Positions 591 to 11,928 of a stretch of 12,701 nucleotides of DNA are shown piece by piece. Origin of the DNA: a virus (Duplodnaviria > Heunggongvirae > Uroviricota > Caudoviricetes); the IMG/VR virus record IMGVR_UViG_2526164599_000005; one strand, given 5' to 3'. The notes beneath the pieces are model-generated. The model was not told the origin of the DNA, made no database searches, and saw only the letters and a program-made list of their open reading frames with translations. The position numbers and the translations under genes are program-made. Position 1 is the stretch's first letter, and every line of letters starts with the position of its first letter.

Positions 591-2164
591 TTACTGAGAG
601 CTCAGATCAACTTTCCAGGGCAACAGATCGCGTACCCGGTTTGCCGGCCAGTCCTGGATATGTTCAATGACGTAGCGCAGCCACTTTCTGGTCTCCACCA
701 TTGTTCAGACGGCATGTGCCGATCAGCGAGTACAACACCGCCGCATGTTCACCACCGCTGTCGGAACCCGCGAACATCCAGTTTTTCCGGCCTACGGCCA
801 CTCCCCGTAAGGCGTTCTCTGCGATGTTGTTGTCGATTTCCACCCAGCCATTACTGCAGTACACGTTCAGTGCATCCCACTGTTTCAGCAGGTATGCGAA
901 CGCTTTTGCCGTATCTGAGTGACGCGACAGTGTTTTCATCTGTTGCTGTATCCAGTCATACAGTGACTGCATCAGTGGCGCGGCTCTGGTTTTTCTTGCC
1001 GCCAGACGCTGTTCTGCTGAACAGCCCCGGACCTCTGCCTCGATGGCATACAGTTCACCGATACGCTGCAGGGCTTCCGTGGTGATGTCGGTGGGCGCTC
1101 TTGCATGCACATCGTGGATTTTTTCTCCGGGCATGAGCCATACACGCGGCTTCCGTTATTCTGCCGGATTCGTATAACGCCCGGTAACCACCGTAAGCAT
1201 CGGCCTGAAGCACACCGCTGTAACCGGCCAGGTGATTTTGTGGATGGATACCTTTCCGGTCCGGACTGTACGCGAACCAGACCGCCGGGGGCATCTGTGA
1301 ACCGGCGTTACGGTCATCACGGACGTAGACCCACAGCCGGGCTGTCCGGGTTTTACCGCTGCCCGGCTCCTGGACCGGGACGGGGATATCATCAGCATGG
1401 ACTTTACCGGGCATCAGCACATACTGGCGCAGGACGTCATACAGCGGCTCCAGTAGTTCAGCAACGGCACCTGTCCAGCGCCCCAGTGTGGCACGGCTCA
1501 GCTCCACACCCTGACGGCGGTATATCTCTGACTGGCGGTATAACGGCAGATGGTCTGCATATTTTCCGGTGACGACATGGGCCAGGAGCCCCGCTCCGGC
1601 ATAACTGCGTGCAATGGGTTTTGAAGGTACTGGTGCCTGCACGATATGGTCGCACCGACAACAGGCCAGTTTCGGACGTTGTGTTTCGATAACCTTAAAG
1701 GCGCTGCTGATAAGCTCCAGTTGCTCTGACACATCACATCCCAGAGAACTGAGTTCACCACCACAGGCAGGACAGCATTCCTCTTCCGGCCGGATAACCC
1801 GGGTTTCACGGGGAAGTGAGGCCGGTAACGGTTTACGGGCTGAAGACTGGCGCAGGGCGGATGGCAGTACCGGGTCATATTGCTCACCCAGCGTTTCCGC
1901 CATTTCTTCCTGAAGTGCGCTGATTCGCTCCTGTGCTTCCTGTATCTGCCGTTCGGTTTTTGCACGAAGTTTTTCTGAGCTTTTACCGAACTGCATACGT
2001 TGCAGTTTCGCAACCAGCGCCTTCAGCCGGTTGATTTCGGAAGCATAAGCCGCCACCCGCTGTGAGAGCAGGCGGTTGTATTCAGCCATCTGGCGTATGG
2101 TGTCCTGTTGCGTCTGCAACAGTGCCCGCAGGCGGGCGTTCTCATGAGCAAGTGAGGTGTCCAT
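591..2164 (-). CDS. tnpC: IS66-family transposase TnpC, reading frame broken by two single-nucleotide frameshifts (possibly pseudogene)
   Basis: ORF pieces 1055-2164 ([17 protein letters not shown]...MAHARRK) and 664-1134 (...[29 protein letters not shown]...[46 protein letters not shown]), plus a third-frame tail [35 protein letters not shown] ending at stop 591-593. Frame changes fall at T6 (1119-1124) and near 695-703. Confidence 0.85.
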
Positions 2165-2183
2165 ATCCTCACTTTACAACGGG

Positions 2184-2531
2184 TTATATGCGGATTCCAG
2201 CGCGTTCCGTTCGTTTCGGGTGCTTCCAGTTGATACCTTCAAGAAGCATGGATAACTGAGCCGGAGTAAGGTGCACCTTGCCGTCACGGGTGACTGGCCA
2301 GACGAAGCGGCCCCGCTCCAGGCGTTTGGTGAAGAGGCACAGTCCGTCACTGTCAGCCCACAACACTTTTATCTGGTCACCCCGGCGTCCGCGGAAGATG
2401 AACAGGTGTCCGGAGAACGGGTCATCCTTCAGGACGTTCTGAACTTTTGATGCCAGGCCGTTAAAGCCATTTCGCATATCGGTGATACCTGCAACCAGCC
2501 AGATACGCGAACCTGCAGGGAGAGATATCAT
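2184..2531 (-). CDS. tnpB: IS66-family TnpB (Orf2), intact
   Basis: 115-aa [96 protein letters not shown]... typical IS66 Orf2; its ATG overlaps the tnpA stop (ATGA overlap). Confidence 0.9.
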   Translation of the reverse strand: MISLPAGSRIWLVAGITDMRNGFNGLASKVQNVLKDDPFSGHLFIFRGRRGDQIKVLWADSDGLCLFTKRLERGRFVWPVTRDGKVHLTPAQLSMLLEGINWKHPKRTERAGIRI

Positions 2532-3207
2532 CAGTGGCTGCTCCCTTTTATTTCGCGGATAAGTGTCTGTAATAACGCCGGCGTCAGTTTACCTTTAAGC
2601 CTGAGAGTTCCGGCCGGCAGAACCAGCTCACAACACAGACTGTCGGACGGTGTATTTATCTGCTCTGGTTCCTGTGCGGGGGCCGGGATTTTATTATCCG
2701 GCTCCGGCGTTAACGTCACGGGAAGCAGTGCCGGCATATTTTTCCGGAAGGCAGCAGGCCACCTTTCCGGTATTGATGGCGCCAGTTGAAGAGCAGGTTA
2801 TCGTTGATTCCGTTTTCCCGGGCGATCTGCGCCACACAGGCTCCGGGCTGCAGTGACTGCTCCACTAAGGCGATTTTAAACTCATAAGGGAAGTTGGGCC
2901 GCCGGGGACGTTTTTTTACCACGGGGGCTTCGGATATAACGGTGCTTTCAGGACGTACGACTGGTACCGTGGAAAATTGTCCGTAAAGGCAGGCATCAAG
3001 TTCCTGCTCCGACATGCCTGCGGGCAAAGGCCACGAAAGGCCAGCTCTCCGAAAGCGCACGAACATACTACAAACTGTTGATTTTGGTACACCCAGGCGA
3101 CGCCCGGCCACAACCCGGGGTAAATGTTCTTCAAAGTGAAGACGTAAAGCTTCAGTGATCCAGGTCCGGTGTTTCATACGATAGTGTCCATTAAAAATGA
3201 TGGACAT
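2531..3207 (-). CDS. tnpA: IS66-family TnpA (Orf1) with one apparent frameshift and an unusually long N-terminal extension; start codon uncertain (3207 or 3177)
   Basis: ORF 2716-3207 contains the IS66 Orf1 HTH core [53 protein letters not shown]; ORF 2531-2737 gives the expected C-terminal part [11 protein letters not shown]...[29 protein letters not shown]. They are joined by a frame change at the T5 run 2739-2743. Confidence 0.7.
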
Positions 3208-3260
3208 TATTTTTGTAGAGCCGGAGGAAACAGACCAGACGGTTTAAATGAGCCGGTTAC

Positions 3261-4101: not shown

Positions 4102-4701
4102 ATGCGTAAACTTTATGCCGCCATTTTGTCCGCAGCCATTTGTCTGGCCGTATCCGGTGCGCCTGCATGGGCATCTGAACATCAGTCCACGCTGAGCGCG
4201 GGGTATCTTCATGCCTTGACGAACGTTCCCGGCAGCGATGATCTTAACGGGATTAACGTGAAATACCGTTATGAGTTTACGGACACACTGGGGCTGGTGA
4301 CGTCATTCAGCTATGCAGGAGACAAGAATCGCCAGCTTACCCGTTACAGCGATACCCGCTGGCATGAAGATTCAGTGCGTAACCGCTGGTTCAGCGTGAT
4401 GGCGGGGCCGTCTGTGCGCGTGAATGAATGGTTCAGCGCGTATGCGATGGCGGGTATGGCTTACAGCCGTGTTTCGACTTTCTCCGGGGATTATCTCCGC
4501 GTAACTGACAACAAGGGGAAAACGCACGACGTGCTGACCGGAAGTGATGACGGTCGCCACAGCAACACGTCTCTGGCGTGGGGGGCTGGCGTGCAGTTTA
4601 ACCCGACCGAATCCGTGGCCATTGATATTGCTTATGAAGGCTCCGGCAGTGGTGACTGGCGCACTGACGGTTTCATCGTGGGTGTCGGTTATAAATTCTG
4701 A
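4102..4701 (+). CDS. lom: Lom-family outer membrane protein (Ail/Lom/PagC/OmpX beta-barrel family)
   Basis: 199 aa with N-terminal signal peptide [24 protein letters not shown] and C-terminus [27 protein letters not shown] as in lambda Lom; SD GAGAGG 6 nt upstream; located between J and stf. Confidence 0.9.
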
Positions 4702-4754: not shown

Positions 4755-4765
4755 GTGGGGTGAAT

Positions 4766-7700
4766 ATGGCAGTAAAGATTTCAGGTGTACTGAAAGACGG
4801 CACAGGAAAACCGGTACAGAACTGCACAATCCAGCTGAAAGCAAAACGTAACAGCACCACGGTGGTGGTGAACACGCTGGCCTCAGAAAATCCGGATGAA
4901 GCCGGGCGTTACAGCATGGACGTTGAGTACGGTCAGTACAGCGTTATTCTGTTGGTGGAAGGCTTCCCGCCGTCACATGCCGGGACCATCACCGTGTATG
5001 AAGATTCCCGACCCGGTACGCTGAATGATTTTCTCGGTGCCATGACGGAGGATGATGCCCGTCCGGAGGCACTGCGCCGTTTTGAACTGATGGTGGAAGA
5101 GGTGGCGCGTAACGCGTCCGCAGTGGCACAGAACACGGCAGCCGCGAAGAAGTCAGCCAGTGATGCCAGCACATCTGCCCGTGAGGCGGCAACCCATGCA
5201 ACCGATGCTGCAGGCTCAGCACGTGCCGCCAGCACGTCAGCCGGACAGGCTGCATCATCTGCTCAGTCAGCATCTTCCAGCGCAGGAACGGCATCAACAA
5301 AGGCCAGTGAAGCATCGAAAAGTGCTGCTGCTGCAGAGTCCTCAAAAAGCGCGGCAGCTACCAGTGCCAGTGCCGCGAAAACGTCAGAAACGAATGCGGC
5401 AGCGTCACAAAAATCTGCAGCCACTTCTGCATCCGCCGCGACCACGAAGGCGTCAGAAGCTGCCACCTCAGCCCGGGATGCGGCGGCCTCAAAAGAGGCA
5501 GCGAAATCATCAGAAACGAACGCATCATCAAGCGCCAGTAGTGCAGCTTCCTCGGCAACGGCGGCAGGAAATTCCGCGAAGGCGGCAAAGACGTCTGAGA
5601 CAAACGCTAAGTCTTCTGAGACGGCAGCGGAACAGAGTGCCTCCGCAGCAGCAGACTCAAAAACAGCGGCTGCATCATCTGCCAGCGCCGCGTCAACAAG
5701 TGCCGGGCAGGCCTCAGCCAGTGCCACCGCCGCCGGAAAGTCGGCAGAAAGTGCCGCATCGTCTGCTTCAACAGCCACAACGAAGGCTGGCGAAGCCACT
5801 GAACAGGCCAGCGCAGCAGCGAGTTCTGCTTCCGCAGCGAAGACATCCGAAACGAACGCGAAAGCGTCGGAAACCCGTGCAGAATCCTCAAAAACGGCTG
5901 CCGCATCGTCAGCCAGTTCGGCGGCGTCATCGGCATCATCTGCGTCTGCTTCAAAAGATGAGGCGACCAGACAAGCGTCAGCAGCGAAGAGCAGCGCCAC
6001 GACGGCATCCACGAAGGCGACAGAGGCAGCTGGCAGTGCGACGGCGGCAGCACAGAGCAAAAGTACGGCGGAATCCGCGGCAACGCGCGCCGAGACAGCG
6101 GCAAAACGGGCAGAGGATATTGCATCCGCCGTGGCGCTTGAGGATGCGAGCACGACGAAAAAGGGGGTAGTACAGCTCAGCAGTGCGACCAACAGTACGT
6201 CTGAAACGCTGGCGGCAACGCCAAAGGCAGTAAAATCAGCCTATGACAATGCAGAGAAACGTCTGCAGAAAGACCAGAACGGCGCTGATATACCCGATAA
6301 GGGACACTTCCTGAACAACATTAACGCGGTCAGTAAAACAGACTTTGCTGATAAGCGCGGTATGCGTTATGTGCGGGTTAATGCTCCTGCAGGTGCAACA
6401 TCTGGAAAATATTACCCTGTTGTTGTTATGCGTTCTGCTGGCTCAGTAAGCGAACTGGCATCAAGGGTCATTATCACCACGGCAACGCGAACCGCAGGCG
6501 ATCCGATGAATAACTGCGAGTTTAACGGATTTGTTATGCCTGGTGGCTGGACTGACAGGGGGCGTTATGCTTATGGCATGTTCTGGCAATATCAAAACAA
6601 TGAACGAGCCATCCACTCAATAATGATGAGTAATAAGGGCGATGATTTGCGCTCTGTGTTCTATGTTGATGGCGCTGCTTTCCCTGTTTTTGCGTTTATC
6701 GAAGATGGCCTGTCAATATCCGCACCTGGTGCTGATCTCGTTGTTAATGATACGACCTATAAGTTTGGGGCAACAAATCCGGCGACTGAATGTATCGCGG
6801 CGGACGTTGTCCTTGATTTTAAGAGTGGGCGTGGTTTTTATGAGTCTCATTCGTTAATCGTTAACGATAACTTGTCGTGCAAAAAACTTTTTGCCACAGA
6901 CGAAATTGTAGCGCGTGGTGGTAATCAGATTCGAATGATAGGTGGGGAGTATGGTGCATTATGGCGTAATGATGGCGCTAAAACTTACCTGCTGCTTACC
7001 AATCAAGGTGATGTTTATGGTGGCTGGAATACATTAAGACCGTTTGCTATTGATAACGCAACCGGCGAACTGATTATTGGAACCAAACTGTCCGCAAGTC
7101 TGAACGGTAATGCATTAACAGCAACAAAGCTGCAAACGCCAAGACTGGTTTCTGGTGTTGAGTTTGATGGTTCCAAAGATATTACTTTAACCGCTGCGCA
7201 TGTGGCTGCTTTTGCCAGAAGGGCAACTGATACATATGCCGATGCGGATGGTGGCGTTCCCTGGAATGCCGAATCAGGCGCTTACAATGTCACCCGCTCT
7301 GGCGACAGCTATATTCTGGTTAACTTCTATACCGGAGTCGGAAGTTGCCGGACCCTGCAGATGAAGGCGCATTACAGAAATGGAGGTCTGTTCTACCGTT
7401 CCTCAAGAGATGGCTATGGTTTTGAGGAAGACTGGGCAGAAGTTTATACCTCGAAAAATCTTCCACCAGAAAGCTACCCAGTCGGCGCACCAATCCCGTG
7501 GCCATCAGATACCGTTCCGTCTGGCTATGCCCTGATGCAGGGGCAGACTTTTGACAAATCTGCATACCCGAAACTTGCAGTGGCTTATCCGTCAGGCGTT
7601 ATTCCTGATATGCGTGGCTGGACGATTAAGGGCAAACCTGCCAGTGGTCGTGCCGTATTGTCTCAGGAACAGGACGGCATTAAATCGCACACCCACAGCG

Positions 7701-8164
7701 CCAGCGCATCCAGTACGGATTTGGGTACGAAAACCACATCGTCGTTTGATTACGGCACTAAATCCACGAATAACACCGGGGCTCATACGCATAGTCTGAG
7801 CGGCTCTACAAGCTCGGCTGGAGCACACTCGCACGTTGATGGGCGCAGGTTTAATACAAGCACTTTTAAAGACACCTATCAGTATGGTTCTACAGCTGTC
7901 GGAAGTAACTCATACCAGGTACAAGGGGCGGTTGGTCTGGGCGTTGGTACGATGGCGAATACGAACTCTGCTGGCGCGCACACCCACTCACTGTCCGGCA
8001 CTGCTGCAAGCGCAGGCGCACACGCACATACTGTCGGTATTGGTGCACACACGCACTCCGTTGCGATTGGTTCACATGGACACACCATCACCGTTAACGC
8101 TGCTGGTAACGCGGAAAACACCGTCAAAAACATTGCATTTAACTATATTGTGAGGCTTGCATAA
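4766..8164 (+). CDS. stf: Side tail fibre protein Stf (lambda Stf / Rac StfR-like), 1132 aa from ATG 4766 (ORF track starts at GTG 4760)
   Basis: N-terminus [37 protein letters not shown] matches the lambda Stf N-terminus as I recall it; Ala/Ser/Thr-rich SETNA repeat region; C-terminal His-rich GAHTHS/GAHAHT motifs ending [18 protein letters not shown]; stop overlaps the tfa ATG (TAATG). Confidence 0.9.
5110..6200 (+). repeat. Coding low-complexity tandem repeat region in stf (Ala/Ser/Thr-rich, [15 protein letters not shown] fibre repeats)
   Basis: Protein residues about 115-480 are almost entirely A/S/T/K/E with recurring TSETNA, SSASAA and TKASEA units; GC-rich DNA with open frames on both strands. 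Confidence 0.6.
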
Positions 8165-8745
8165 TGGCATTCAGAATGAGTGAACAAGCACGGACCATAA
8201 AAATTTATAATCTGCTGGCCGGAACTAATGAATTTATTGGTGAAGGTGACGCATATATTCCGCCTCATACAGGTCTGCCAGCAAACAGTACCGATATTGC
8301 ACCGCCAGATATTCCAGCAGGCTTCGTGGCTGTTTTCAACAGTGATGAGGCATCGTGGCATCTTGTTGAAGACCATCGGGGTAAAACAGTTTATGACGTG
8401 GCATCAGGGGACGCGTTATTTATTTCTGAACTCGGCTCATTACCGGAAAATGTTACCTGGTTATCCCCGGAAGGGGAGTTTCAGAAGTGGAACGGCACAG
8501 CCTGGGTGAAGGATACGGAAGCAGAAAAACTGTTCCGGATCCGGGAGGCGGAAGAAACAAAAAACAGCCTGATGCAGGTAGCCAGTGAGCATATAGCGCC
8601 ACTTCAGGATGCTGTAGATCTGGAGATCGCAACGGAGGAAGAAAACTCGTTGCTGGAAGCCTGGAAGAAGTATCGGGTGTTGCTGAACCGTGTTAATACA
8701 ACAACTGCACCGGATATTGAATGGCCAGTAGCACCTATAGGGTAA
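8164..8745 (+). CDS. tfa: Tail fibre assembly protein Tfa
   Basis: 193 aa [91 protein letters not shown]... closely matches lambda Tfa as I recall it; translationally coupled to stf. Confidence 0.92.
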
Positions 8746-8827
8746 ATTCGTAATGATTACCTAAATACGTTATTCTTTTGCTCAAAAAGTGATTTTGCTA
8801 TAGGTAGAGAGTATGTTCTTGGATTAA

Positions 8828-8861
8828 GAATAAAAAATCGCCATGAAAGAGCTTCATGGCG
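8828..8861 (-). terminator. Candidate rho-independent terminator for a minus-strand transcript converging on tfa
   Basis: Plus strand has 9-bp stem CGCCATGAA (8839-8847), loop AGAGC, TTCATGGCG (8853-8861), preceded by TAAAAAAT (8831-8838); on the minus strand the hairpin is followed by ATTTTTTATTCTT. Confidence 0.45.
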
Positions 8862-9331
8862 AGTACATAAACGGTACAAAATATGATGAAAGTAGAGCGG
8901 CGTAAGCCACTATATTAAGATATGACAATAGCGAAGAAAAGTAAATAACATTTTATGGACGTTTAATTGTTAATTATAAAAACTAGAGTGCCCGATATTG
9001 TTTATCTTGCTTTAAAATAATGTACTCAAACCAAATTTTTGAGCTAAAAGCTCAAATAATATAAATGCAATGATAATGTTTAATAAGACAATTAGCTTGC
9101 TTTGTATTTTCATTTCGGAATACTGTTAAGTAACTTTGATGACCCTAACAATAGATCGGAATTTTCTTAGAGTCAATGGTCACTGTATTTGCTTGCAAAG
9201 CAAATGTTTTGGTGGTTATAAGTTTTCTTAATATAGTCACCTATGCAACTTGTTCCGTGTGGAGATTAAAGGTTAAAATTTAATGCGAAGATGGAATTAT
9301 ATTATATTTTTATAATTAATTTAACCTTAAC

Positions 9332-9432
9332 ATCGTTGCTGGCGGCATGGAAGAAATATCGGGTCTTGCTGATGTCGTGTTGGCACTTCCTTAGTGCCGG
9401 ATATCGAAAGGCCAGCTGTACCTGTGGGGTGA
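9332..9432 (+). repeat. Degenerate direct copy of the tfa 3' end (remnant 1, non-coding scar)
   Basis: ATCGTTGCTGGCGGCATGGAAGAAATATCGGGTCTTGCTGA...CCGGATATCGAAAGGCCAG...GGGGTGA aligns to tfa 8647-8745 (CTCGTTGCTGGAAGCCTGGAAGAAGTATCGGGTGTTGCTGA...CCGGATATTGAATGGCCAG...AGGGTAA). Roughly three-quarters identity by eye, with indels and an internal stop. Confidence 0.7.
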
Positions 9433-9564
9433 AAACTTTATATGGATGCTATTTTTATAATAGCTGGTAAAAACTGGCCGAACTGAAATTCACTGTTGAT
9501 AAAAAAGATGTGTTTGAGTGTATGTCATTGTTTTCTTAATGGAATCCACTAGAATACAGCGAAT

Positions 9565-9762
9565 TTAAGAAGGTGGATTTTTATTGGAATATAAACTACA
9601 ATAATGCTCAACTCGTTCGTAGAATTGTTTTTTCTTATTTCTTGGAATGCTAACTATTATATGCATTATGGGGGCGATACTTCCTGATAATTTACATGAT
9701 GCATACATTGAAGCAATAAATTCAATATCATTGTCATCAAAGTTAAAGCTTTCTCCGTTCAT
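9565..9762 (-). CDS. Hypothetical small protein (65 aa), unrecognised
   Basis: ORF MNGESFNFDDNDIEFIASMYASCKLSGSIAPIMHIIVSIPRNKKKQFYERVEHYCSLYSNKNPPS; minus-strand context TAAGGAATTGAAATG gives an AAGGA Shine-Dalgarno 6 nt before the ATG. AT-rich, so a chance ORF is possible. Confidence 0.3.
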   Translation of the reverse strand: MNGESFNFDDNDIEFIASMYASCKLSGSIAPIMHIIVSIPRNKKKQFYERVEHYCSLYSNKNPPS

Positions 9763-10087
9763 TTCAATTCCTTATGTGTTTGACACAACTGATGCTGTAT
9801 CCCATGAGAATTTATGCAAGTTGTTATGTTTGATTTGATATTGCAATGATAATTGTAGCTAATTGTTTTCAATTGAGTGAAAGTTTATTTCGAGTGATTA
9901 AGTCGAAAAAAAAGATTTCTCACGGTTAGTAAGCGTATTAGGTCAGTATTCAGATATGAATGGTATTAATGACTAAATTTTCAATCATATATGGATTTTT
10001 ATGCTGATGAAGGTGTTTTATTTGGCGATTCGTCAAGCATCTTCACTTAAGTAATCGTATATTTTAAGAGTGCAAAAGAGAAAGGGA

Positions 10088-10190
10088 CAACGTTGCTCGC
10101 ACTCTGGATTAAATATAGGGTATTGTTAAACTTCGTTGATACATAATTGTACCGGATATTGAGTGGTCTGAAGTCCCAGTCATTAAGTAA
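10088..10190 (+). repeat. Second, more diverged and AT-shifted direct copy of the tfa 3' end (remnant 2)
   Basis: ACGTTGCTCGCACTCTGGATTAAATATAGGGTATTGTTAAACTTCGTTGATACATAA...CCGGATATTGAGTGGTCTGAAGTCCCAGTCATTAAGTAA; translation TLLALWIKYRVLLNFVDT* / PDIEWSEVPVIK* parallels tfa [20 protein letters not shown] / [11 protein letters not shown]. Confidence 0.6.
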
Positions 10191-10538
10191 TTGTTTCGTG
10201 ATATGCTGCAGAAACGTTGTATGCAATAACGTTCTGCGGTTGGCTGGTGAACTTTCGATAGTGCGGGTATTGAATGATTTCCAGCCGTTACCGATTTTAT
10301 ATAACTGCAGTGGAATTATTCAACACACAGGCAAAACGGAATAAGCTGAGAAAAAAGCGTGCTTTCCCAATCTGGGGCAAATCACTTCTGAATGACACCT
10401 GAAAACAGGTGGTGGACTCAAGAAGGCTTGGAATATTCTTCTTTAATGTTATGTAATTCATTGATTTTTCGTGTACGATTTTAAGACATTTATTCCAAGA
10501 AAAATTTTTAACTCTTTGATTTTTCGACTCTGTATCAT

Positions 10539-10600
10539 CGGTCTCGAAAACCGGAGTAGGGGCAACTCTACCGGGGGTTCAAATCCCCCTCTCTCCGCCA
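10539..10600 (+). other. 3' fragment (about 62 nt, anticodon stem to CCA) of tRNA-Ser(CGA); attR-type core repeat, not a functional tRNA
   Basis: CGGTCTCGAAAACCGGAGTAGGGGCAACTCTACCGGGGGTTCAAATCCCCCTCTCTCCGCCA matches the 3' part of E. coli serU as I recall it (anticodon loop CTCGAAA, long variable arm, T-arm GGGGGTTCAAATCCCCC). No complementary 5' acceptor strand upstream. Confidence 0.75.
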
Positions 10601-11184
10601 CTTTATCAATGACTTATCTCCCGACTTCCCGCCTTGCTTTTCCTAAACAGAACAATCGTAGAATATTCTTGAAGGGTTAGATCGTCACTGTTTTCTGTTC
10701 GATACTGTGACATTCAGCACTTGATTCACTATGGATCTGACAGGAAGGTTTTGAGCGAAAATTTGCAGTTATTCAGTCGTTTTCTTATCGGTCACCATTA
10801 TTCTTTTAGACATTGATCCTACAAAGCTGCCGCAAAGTTGGTGGTGGGAACTGAAGTTGCGTAGAGAAGGGGTCAATACCCGGAGGCAAACATGGGCTGG
10901 CAAAAGTGTAGCGGTATTAGGCGCAGCTATTTAGCCTAGTTATGTTTTATGAAAACTTGATATCATATAAGTGTCTTACTTATTGGCTGTAAATAAGTTT
11001 TTCCTAAGGAATTGTTTCTTGAGTATCATTTGTAACTGTAACGGAATTTATAATCCTTTGCTTTATTGTTACGGTATTTTTTATCACACCCTATTTTTTA
11101 TGTGGTTTTTTATACTGAAGTTTGGCAAAGTGAACTTTATATGCATATACTTCATCCTGGTTTCAGTTAAGTTGGGTGGATGAT

Positions 11185-11928
11185 ATGGCAACTACATGTT
11201 CAGTTATATTGATTTTGGAGTCCTTTGATGTTTATTTCGGAAAAGAGAGTGTGTTTCTAGAGAAAGGTTCATCTGTACTTGTCGACTCTAGCTCTAGAGA
11301 TTTTTTCCTGACATATCCTGAAAGAGTGATAGTGGCGGATTTTGGCGCTGAGTTTATTAGTCGCTATTTGAAAGCTAATAACTTAAGGGATATTTCTGAT
11401 TGTAGGGAATATCCATCTTATTTAAAAATAAACTTTGCTGACTTCAGTTTAATTAAAGGATTAATTAGTTGGGCTAATCACTGTGCTGAATACATAGAAA
11501 TTTTTGATGAGTCTATTGCTTTTACATGTCTCTCTGCATTTTCTTCTGAAAAACAATTTGGAGTATTTCTGTTTGAATGTTTGAAAAGCACAGAGGCTAA
11601 AGTTAAAACGATTATTCATACGGATTTATCTGCACCATGGCGTCTTAAGGATATATCATCAAGATTATATCTCAGCGAAAGTTTACTAAAGAGGAAATTG
11701 AAAGAAGAGGGGGTATCATTCAGTAAGATCATACTTGATGAGAGGATGCAAATGGCTGAATATTTACTCAGCACTCGTTGTTATCCTATTAGTAAAGTAG
11801 CTAAGGTCTGTGGTTATGCCAGTGTCTCATACTTTACTTATGTATTTAGACGTTATTTTGGTGTTTCTCCAAGTCAATACTCTCAGAGGAGTTCAGAAAG
11901 TAAAATTCTTACTCACCAGGGAATCTGA
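11185..11928 (+). CDS. AraC/XylS-family transcriptional regulator, YdeO/AppY/EnvY-like (horizontally acquired type); 247 aa from ATG 11185 (ORF track starts at GTG 11176)
   Basis: C-terminal dual-HTH region WRLKDISSRLYLSESLLKRKLKEEGVSFSKIILDERMQMAEYLLSTRCYPISKVAKVCGYASVSYFTYVFRRYFGVSPSQY resembles YdeO/AppY as I recall them; N-terminus TCSVILILESFD resembles their CSV(V/I)FI motif; GGTGGA SD-like sequence 4 nt upstream; very AT-rich. Confidence 0.85.
   Translation: MATTCSVILILESFDVYFGKESVFLEKGSSVLVDSSSRDFFLTYPERVIVADFGAEFISRYLKANNLRDISDCREYPSYLKINFADFSLIKGLISWANHCAEYIEIFDESIAFTCLSAFSSEKQFGVFLFECLKSTEAKVKTIIHTDLSAPWRLKDISSRLYLSESLLKRKLKEEGVSFSKIILDERMQMAEYLLSTRCYPISKVAKVCGYASVSYFTYVFRRYFGVSPSQYSQRSSESKILTHQGI

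Follow-up and report, generated by a model that had tools for sequence, protein, structure and literature searches.

Two decayed direct copies of the tfa 3′ end, apparently relics of different tfa genes, downstream of the intact tail fibre assembly gene of a lambda-like prophage

The DNA analysed here is a stretch of 12,701 nucleotides (nt) from IMG/VR virus record IMGVR_UViG_2526164599_000005, referred to below as the window, and represents the right arm of a lambda-like prophage. It contains an intact tail fibre assembly gene, tfa, which is 95% identical to lambda tfa. Downstream of tfa lie an AT-rich zone, a gene for an AraC-family regulator and fragments of an IS3-family insertion sequence (IS), in that order. 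Between tfa and the regulator gene the 3′ end of tfa is found twice more, in the same orientation as the gene itself. The last 146 nt of the resident tfa (8600-8745) were taken as the reference copy of this repeat. Copy 2 and copy 3 follow it, each preceded by an AT-rich spacer, and copy 3 is succeeded by a conserved hairpin element (coordinates in Table 1). The three repeats are 70-88% identical, with start-to-start spacings of 686 and 757 nt. A first-pass annotation had described the two additional copies and interpreted them as scars of cassette exchange, with the conserved tfa 3′ end serving as the crossover point.

Local alignment of copies 2 and 3 to tfa gave scores of 68 and 53, compared with 21.6 ± 2.3 and 20.4 ± 2.0 for dinucleotide shuffles (z = 20 and 16), and nhmmer returned E-values of 2.4e-28 and 3.7e-38 for the two copies. 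Three direct copies of the tfa 3′ end are thus present, and their similarity is far above the chance level. The homology of copy 2 to tfa ended abruptly at 9333. Copy 3 had been placed at 10088-10190; a copy does exist there, but it starts at about 10044, some 45 nt further 5′, at tfa position ~433 of 585.

In both copies the N-terminal two thirds of tfa are gone. The reading frame is also disrupted in each, and stops or indels had been reported by the first-pass annotation. Copy 2 contains a 1-nt insertion, after which the reading frame gives RVGTSLVPDIERPAVPVG followed by a stop codon, and a conserved tryptophan has become arginine in the window while it is retained in relatives. The annotation pipeline PGAP describes copy 2 in three related loci (L004, L012 and L013) as 'tail fiber assembly protein; frameshifted; missing N-terminus', and its lesions vary from strain to strain. 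Copy 3 reads AKEKGTTLLALWIKYRVLLNFVDT and then stops, with TLLALWIKYRVLLNFVDT as the retained stretch before the stop; beyond this a 1-nt deletion is found, and the next frame reads IIVPDIEWSEVPVIK, again up to a stop. An AT shift is seen in copy 3, with a GC content of 36%, but not in copy 2, with 53.5% (tfa, 48%; spacers, 29% and 31%). Where four intact tfa genes are invariant, copy 3 carries 25 GC to AT changes versus 7 in the opposite direction, and copy 2 carries 4 versus 9. The base changes in copy 3 therefore have the appearance of decay under relaxed selection.

If the tfa 3′ end and the DNA downstream of it had been duplicated locally in tandem, with later decay of the spacers, direct copies at similar intervals would result, and the spacings of 686 and 757 nt agree with this. 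However, spacers 1 and 2 have no similarity to each other (z = -0.1) even though the repeats flanking them remain 70-88% identical. Together with the sharp end of the homology at 9333, this shows that the repeats are not parts of a longer duplicated block. The copies also differ in tfa allele lineage and in their tail codons. Local duplication is effectively refuted by these observations, and we regard it as extremely improbable.

The lineages of the copies were seen in an alignment of four intact tfa ends with other tfa remnants. Copy 2 has the block ACTTCC.TAG in common with tfaX of Escherichia coli K-12, and its tail codons (PAVPVG and stop) are like those of the resident tfa type. The tail of copy 3 is of the lambda/tfaD type. 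The resemblance of copy 3 to this type extends past the gene: copy 3 with about 55 nt of downstream DNA aligned with the end of lambda tfa and the next 51 nt (79-81% identity), and with the end of K-12 tfaD and the next 54 nt (72%). To judge from these alignments, copies 2 and 3 are what is left of two different tfa genes, and neither is a duplicate of the resident one.

The hairpin element to the right of copy 3 is found directly 3′ of an intact tfa in lambda, K-12 tfaD, phage PhiR29_1 and four other loci (L040, L054, L063 and L090). HK97 has it as well, and in L011, L013 and three further loci (L018, L088 and L089) it follows cargo genes. In hairpin 1, the pair formed by positions 12 and 32 covaries (CG in seven cases, AU in four). 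The element belongs natively to the DNA downstream of lambda-type tfa and bounds a variable zone on its right side; it is probably an end-of-late-operon or convergent terminator region.

The content of this zone was surveyed in 80 IMG/VR loci with a Tfa at least 94% identical to that of the window, about 41 of which had at least 1 kb of sequence downstream. Out of these ~41 informative loci, 11 contained the array seen in the window, 9-10 contained ybcY followed by the remnant tfaX, and about 21 had no tfa remnant. The cargo between tfa and the hairpin element included an EcoRII-type restriction-modification pair, a manganese catalase with a DUF892 protein, a cdt-like operon, the candidate defence gene PDC-S31, a GGDEF protein, an invertase, sitABCD, ompT and others. 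The interval from tfa to the hairpin element is a hypervariable cargo zone of lambdoid prophages, and most cargo swaps in it are scarless. The sitABCD genes, for iron and manganese uptake, were also observed just past the hairpin element in L011, L013/L014, L015 and L090, at the Rac (uspF side) and e14 (icd) sites at least.

Tfa stubs comparable to copies 2 and 3 were found in other lineages. All additional tfa matches in the 80 IMG/VR loci were 3′ fragments in direct orientation, of at most 205 nt; no tfa 5′ fragment and no second full-length tfa was present in these loci. In PhiR70_1, L009, L012 and L013, an S74-type tail fibre gene is followed by a 38-nt spacer, a tfa stub of 143-159 nt and then spacer 1. 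Fibre genes ending in an S74-type intramolecular chaperone (471-3146 in L006; also L009, L012 and L013) need no Tfa, and PhiR70_1 is plaque-forming. Phage 2G7b has another fibre set, then a stub that starts at tfa position ~454-464. The IMG/VR loci with ybcY and tfaX have a separate copy of hairpin 1 behind the tfaX remnant. Across five lineages the 5′ edges of the stubs fall at tfa positions 484, ~433, 440, ~454-464 and 376-425.

The distribution of the array was determined in 5,426 complete E. coli genomes. Spacer 1 occurred in 829 of these and spacer 2 in 583, and the contiguous junction from spacer 1 through copy 2 to spacer 2 was present in 579, nearly always at 95-99% identity. The array was located at the lambda attachment site (L001), at the Qin site in ydfJ (L004, L005 and L010) and beside intS and a tRNA-Arg gene (L012). 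This wide occurrence of a near-identical array at several sites indicates one old block that has been spread by recombination, and no ongoing turnover mediated by the repeats.

Variants of the array were informative as to where it breaks. In phages ev099 and mEp332, tfa and spacer 1 are followed by 86 bp and then by the DNA that precedes the AraC-family gene (join 9323/10344). We considered whether the 86-bp filler might be a collapsed remnant of the array, but its similarity was not above that of shuffled sequences. In L011, spacer 1 is joined at 9292 to the hairpin element at 10215, and sitDCBA follows. L013 has kept copy 2 and carries a Bcr/CflA transporter gene in place of 9463-10207 (join 9462/10208), followed by the hairpin element and sitDCBA; in this small sample of loci, the transporter has no tfa remnant to its right and its junctions lie 29 and 18 nt beyond the copies. 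L010 has a deletion within spacer 1. All of these variant junctions lie outside the tfa repeats.

These data bear on the cassette exchange proposed in the first-pass annotation, in which the tfa 3′ block is a homologous crossover site and units of tfa end plus cargo are gained or lost through a single crossover involving a circle or through unequal crossover between phages, duplicating the block. The anatomy is like that of integration-target genes, with the displaced 3′ end at the far side of the insert, and the zone contains many alternative cargoes; the ybcY unit even has a tfa end with hairpin 1 on both sides. Moreover, where the downstream flanks of tfa genes differ, the homology between the genes already ends 10-20 nt short of the stop, right after the PDIEW codons. 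The conserved tfa 3′ end is thus a plausible left arm for scar-free cargo swaps, and the proposal that lambdoid prophages exchange the content of the locus, which the tfa end bounds on the left, holds. As the crossover point that generated the copies, however, the tfa end is not supported, on several counts. The 5′ edges of the stubs differ by lineage, so that there is no shared core, and the observed variants break outside the repeats. Exact runs common to the three copies reach 8-12 nt at most. Identity of this length is below that used efficiently by RecA-type recombination. There are two remnant-bearing arrangements among the ~41 informative loci, and the ~21 loci with other cargo are free of remnants. 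No recombinase gene is found nearby except IS transposases. The mechanism had also been presented as one already proposed for exchangeable cargo loci at the tail-fibre end of lambdoid prophages; none of the searchable papers proposed it for effector loci, and one attributed effector-locus variation to IS-associated events. Taken together, we consider cassette exchange an unlikely origin for the copies.

Since the similarity is neither due to chance nor the product of local duplication, the copies are best described as recombination scars from serial events, which was the first-pass annotation's broader claim. From the observed anatomy, lineage differences, distribution and variant junctions, we infer an order of events and a mechanism with homology on one side only. 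Copies 2 and 3 would be dead relics, stacked by serial replacement of the tail-fibre module, and we favour this as the probable history. In each round, an incoming stf-tfa segment would bring with it part of its own downstream flank. The left crossover would use homology in conserved sequence further upstream (J, lom or the N-terminal part of stf), and the right join would be non-homologous, inside the last third of the resident tfa. The outcome would be a 5′-truncated old tfa still attached to its own native flank. Copy 3 with the hairpin element would then be the oldest layer, copy 2 with spacer 2 the next, and tfa with spacer 1 the current one. The finished array would have spread among lambdoid prophages as one block by ordinary homologous recombination, and its relics would now be inert: frameshifted, decaying neutrally, and too short and diverged to recombine with each other.

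Serial module replacement is argued for by the restriction of the copies to the 3′ end of tfa, the unrelated spacers, the different tfa alleles and the native lambda flank on copy 3. It is also consistent with the GC to AT decay of copy 3 and the strain-specific lesions of copy 2, with the parallel stubs in PhiR70_1, 2G7b, DLP12 and PhiR29_1, with the differing stub edges, and with the conservation of the array as a single block. Four points weigh against it. No extant phage was found with an intact tfa directly before spacer 2, so that we infer, rather than observe, spacer 2 to be the native flank of copy 2. The five stub edges all lie within tfa positions 376-484, which is tighter than expected of random breakpoints; to explain it one would need a local hotspot, or selection for stubs that are short, harmless and proof against recombination. 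The same final structure would also arise if a circular unit consisting of a tfa end and a spacer were inserted by a Campbell-type event. Finally, the pre-AraC DNA into which the window runs on past the hairpin is also what the ev099-type phages have after spacer 1; either donor and recipient had that region in common, or the history is more complex.

The clustering of stub lengths at about 100-200 nt in five lineages would also suit remnants that are kept for a function, be it as RNA or regulatory elements or as portable homology arms for the fibre module or adjacent cargo. The stubs persist in viable phages, and the tfa region concerned has an Rfam entry as a candidate RNA gene. The Rfam family in question, RF02111 (IS009), matched the window at 8507-8705 with 225.6 bits, inside the tfa coding sequence. 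It likewise matched, at 225-230 bits, within other intact tfa genes (L008, 7857-8055; L016, 4147-4345), and K-12 tfaD and the tfa of PhiR29_1 are among the genes matched. The tfa-end copies, with 39.3 and 32 bits, fell far short of the gathering threshold of 117, and the part of the model that they share is unstructured. The copies are therefore not IS009 RNA, and IS009 itself is a piece of tfa coding sequence. The frameshifts, strain-specific lesions and AT drift of copies 2 and 3 speak further against a retained function, which we judge to be very unlikely. A possible relation to the small RNA PasB, raised by a paper linking IS009 with the flanks of PasB, was rejected, as the probe is absent from the window and PasB of strain E2348/69 lies between a tail assembly gene and J.

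The slots between the repeats had been described as essentially empty. This is accurate for spacer 2, which contains no convincing gene, but not for spacer 1, in which an unannotated 33-codon open reading frame (ORF) is conserved on the minus strand. The ORF was intact in all 38 of 38 copies, which represent six nucleotide alleles, and its variable sites are distributed 8/2/13 over the three codon positions. Compared with the 79%-identical version in L013, the ratio of non-synonymous to synonymous differences (pN/pS) was 0.16, and every other small ORF of spacer 1 is broken in that version. The 33-codon ORF is thus under purifying selection. The promoter-like site upstream of it, which would drive its expression, has an invariant -35 hexamer and a nearly invariant -10 hexamer in divergent copies. 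The terminator-like hairpin is the best-kept 50 nt of spacer 1 (94% identical to L013). Near the ORF, the plus strand has a weak promoter-like site (8922-8951), and a palindromic hairpin is found at 9038-9056. The ORF is unnamed in every source that holds it, and PGAP annotates nothing there. A wider search for homologues of the 33-amino-acid (aa) product gave two matches among 1.8 billion representatives, and none in one-genome-per-species contigs.

We see the product as a candidate small membrane protein or, possibly, as that of a type I toxin-like moron: as in type I toxins, it is small, has one hydrophobic stretch and has its own predicted transcription signals. One could go further and suppose that the tfa stubs of about 100-200 nt are kept as portable homology arms, and that spacer 1 is a small mobile moron encoding a 33-aa membrane protein, possibly type I toxin-like or superinfection-related, and expressed from the prophage minus strand. 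We regard this combination as distinctly unlikely.

At every locus examined, spacer 1 is preceded either by an intact tfa or by a tfa remnant of 143-159 nt. The left part of spacer 1 in L012 and L013 is 79-88% identical to the window, and the sequences become nearly identical from ~9215 onwards. By this comparison ~9215 appears to be a mosaic breakpoint inside spacer 1, outside any tfa copy. Spacer 2 gave no matches beyond copy 2 in a search of the phage collection. PGAP annotates a 65-aa hypothetical ORF in spacer 2, which had no Pfam or PHROG match. Its homologues are near-identical, confined to E. coli and between 45 and 83 aa long, and the substitutions in L012 are mainly non-synonymous. 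We therefore regard it as a doubtful gene, on the grounds of its lack of a family, variable length and lack of a constraint signal. Neither spacer could be recognised as a decayed ybcY or a decayed tfa: tblastn with ybcY found nothing, and nhmmer with full-length tfa matched only the 3′ stubs. The ORFs in the whole interval 8746-11175 had no Pfam or PHROG match, and the only gene nearby is that of the AraC-family regulator.

Table 1. Features of the window discussed in the text, in order of position
Feature	Coordinates	Strand	Remarks
IS66-family element inside J	~660-3210	-	helix-turn-helix ORF, TnpB, DDE transposase
lom	4102-4701		
stf	4760-8164		
Intact tfa (tail fibre assembly, 193 aa)	8164-8745	+	Pfam Caudo_TAP 3.4e-43; phrog_105
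Spacer 1	8746-9332	.	AT-rich, 29% GC; always 3′ of this tfa tail type
Intrinsic-terminator-like hairpin	8838-8862	-	11-bp stem then TTTTTTATTC; ends minus-strand unit; forms in minimum free energy fold
Unannotated 33-codon hydrophobic ORF	9012-9113 (coding 9113 to 9015, stop 9012-9014)	-	MKIQSKLIVLLNIIIAFILFELLAQKFGLSTLF
Promoter-like site	9148-9176	-	TTGACT-17-TATTGT; consensus scan; upstream of 33-codon ORF
Copy 2, 5′-truncated frameshifted tfa end	9333-9433	+	tfa positions 484-585
Spacer 2	9434-10043	.	AT-rich, 31% GC; always right of copy 2
65-aa hypothetical ORF, doubtful gene	9565-9762	-	PGAP annotation; in spacer 2
Copy 3, AT-shifted frameshifted tfa end, older	10044-10190	+	tfa positions ~433-585
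Conserved hairpin element	10194-10304	+	hairpin 1, 10206-10239; hairpin 2, 10242-10286; then GATTTTA
AraC-family regulator	11176-11928	+	phrog_1450, 1.4e-94

On the left of the window, J is interrupted by an IS66-family element, whose transposase is split into ORFs of 369 and 156 aa. As J is intact in the near-identical L001, the window's prophage copy is probably tail-defective. The corresponding locus of bovine strain OkiPb01701 is 99.5% identical, has an intact J and runs on into ybhB-bioA, the lambda attachment site. The AraC-family gene is also present in the viable phages ev099, mEp332 and PhiR70_1, and is the positional analogue of appY in prophage DLP12. Between the hairpin element and this gene, a stretch of 87 nt (10539-10625) has a 100% match in nearly all E. 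coli, to the 3′ portion of a chromosomal tRNA-Ser gene and the ~24 nt that lie downstream of it. ARAGORN found no full tRNA at this position. The segment looks like captured host DNA from an attachment (att) region within the phage b region, and is comparable to the 'att-in-prophage' sites of Nakamura et al.

Several known systems share parts of this organisation. In the integration of e14 at icd and of Rac at ttcA, and in duplicated tRNA 3′ halves at att sites, a working gene is likewise followed by foreign DNA and a direct copy of its own 3′ end, and an icd remnant of this displaced kind is present in L015. Such gene ends are made by an integrase at a defined core, whereas here there is no integrase, the edges differ and the copies come from different alleles. 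The transposases of the window are IS66- and IS3-family fragments only, with no dedicated recombinase beside the array. Without a recombinase and without a common core at identical boundaries, the array is therefore not integron-like. Inversion of the Pin/Gin type was also dismissed, as the copies are direct and there is no invertase here; crossover sites of that type lie in stf, not in tfa.

The lambda b-region morons and the exchangeable effector loci of enterohaemorrhagic E. coli (EHEC) resemble the locus in lying between the tail-fibre genes and the prophage end, in having varying content and in the swapping of modules by recombination. Effector loci of EHEC and enteropathogenic E. coli encode type III effectors; none is present in 8746-11175, and the locus is therefore not an effector locus. 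The classical papers on tail-fibre mosaicism and exchangeable effector loci are Haggard-Ljungquist 1992, Sandmeier 1994 and Tobe 2006.

No new recombination system is revealed by the array, and the recombination scar, though real, is ordinary in kind. Its value is as a clear and datable case of the rebuilding of lambdoid tail-fibre and cargo regions, with three tfa generations legible within 2 kb. The tfa stop and the conserved hairpin element are moreover defined by it as the limits of a cargo hotspot, in which near-identical phages carry iron uptake, restriction-modification, catalase, toxin or regulator genes. For annotation, IS009 should be seen as part of the tfa coding sequence, and the 33-codon gene of spacer 1 is missed by current pipelines.

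The closest parallel is the tfaD-ybcY-tfaX region of K-12 prophage DLP12, also found in PhiR29_1 and 2G7b, where an intact tfa is followed by a direct, 5′-truncated tfa end, as in the window. The remnant in DLP12 keeps its own downstream hairpin, and an AraC-family regulator (appY) and other cargo follow it, again as in the window. DLP12 differs in having one remnant instead of two, which starts further 5′, at tfa position 376-425. Its spacer is a real gene, ybcY, which lies on the minus strand, encodes an S-adenosylmethionine-dependent methyltransferase and has no relation to spacers 1 and 2; ybcY is intact in the viable phages PhiR29_1 and 2G7b. A literature search for tfaX and tfaD returned only unrelated abbreviations. 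Copies 2 and 3 are partial tfa (Caudo_TAP, PF02413) pseudogenes of the lambdoid b-region or moron zone, of a kind already known from tfaX of DLP12.

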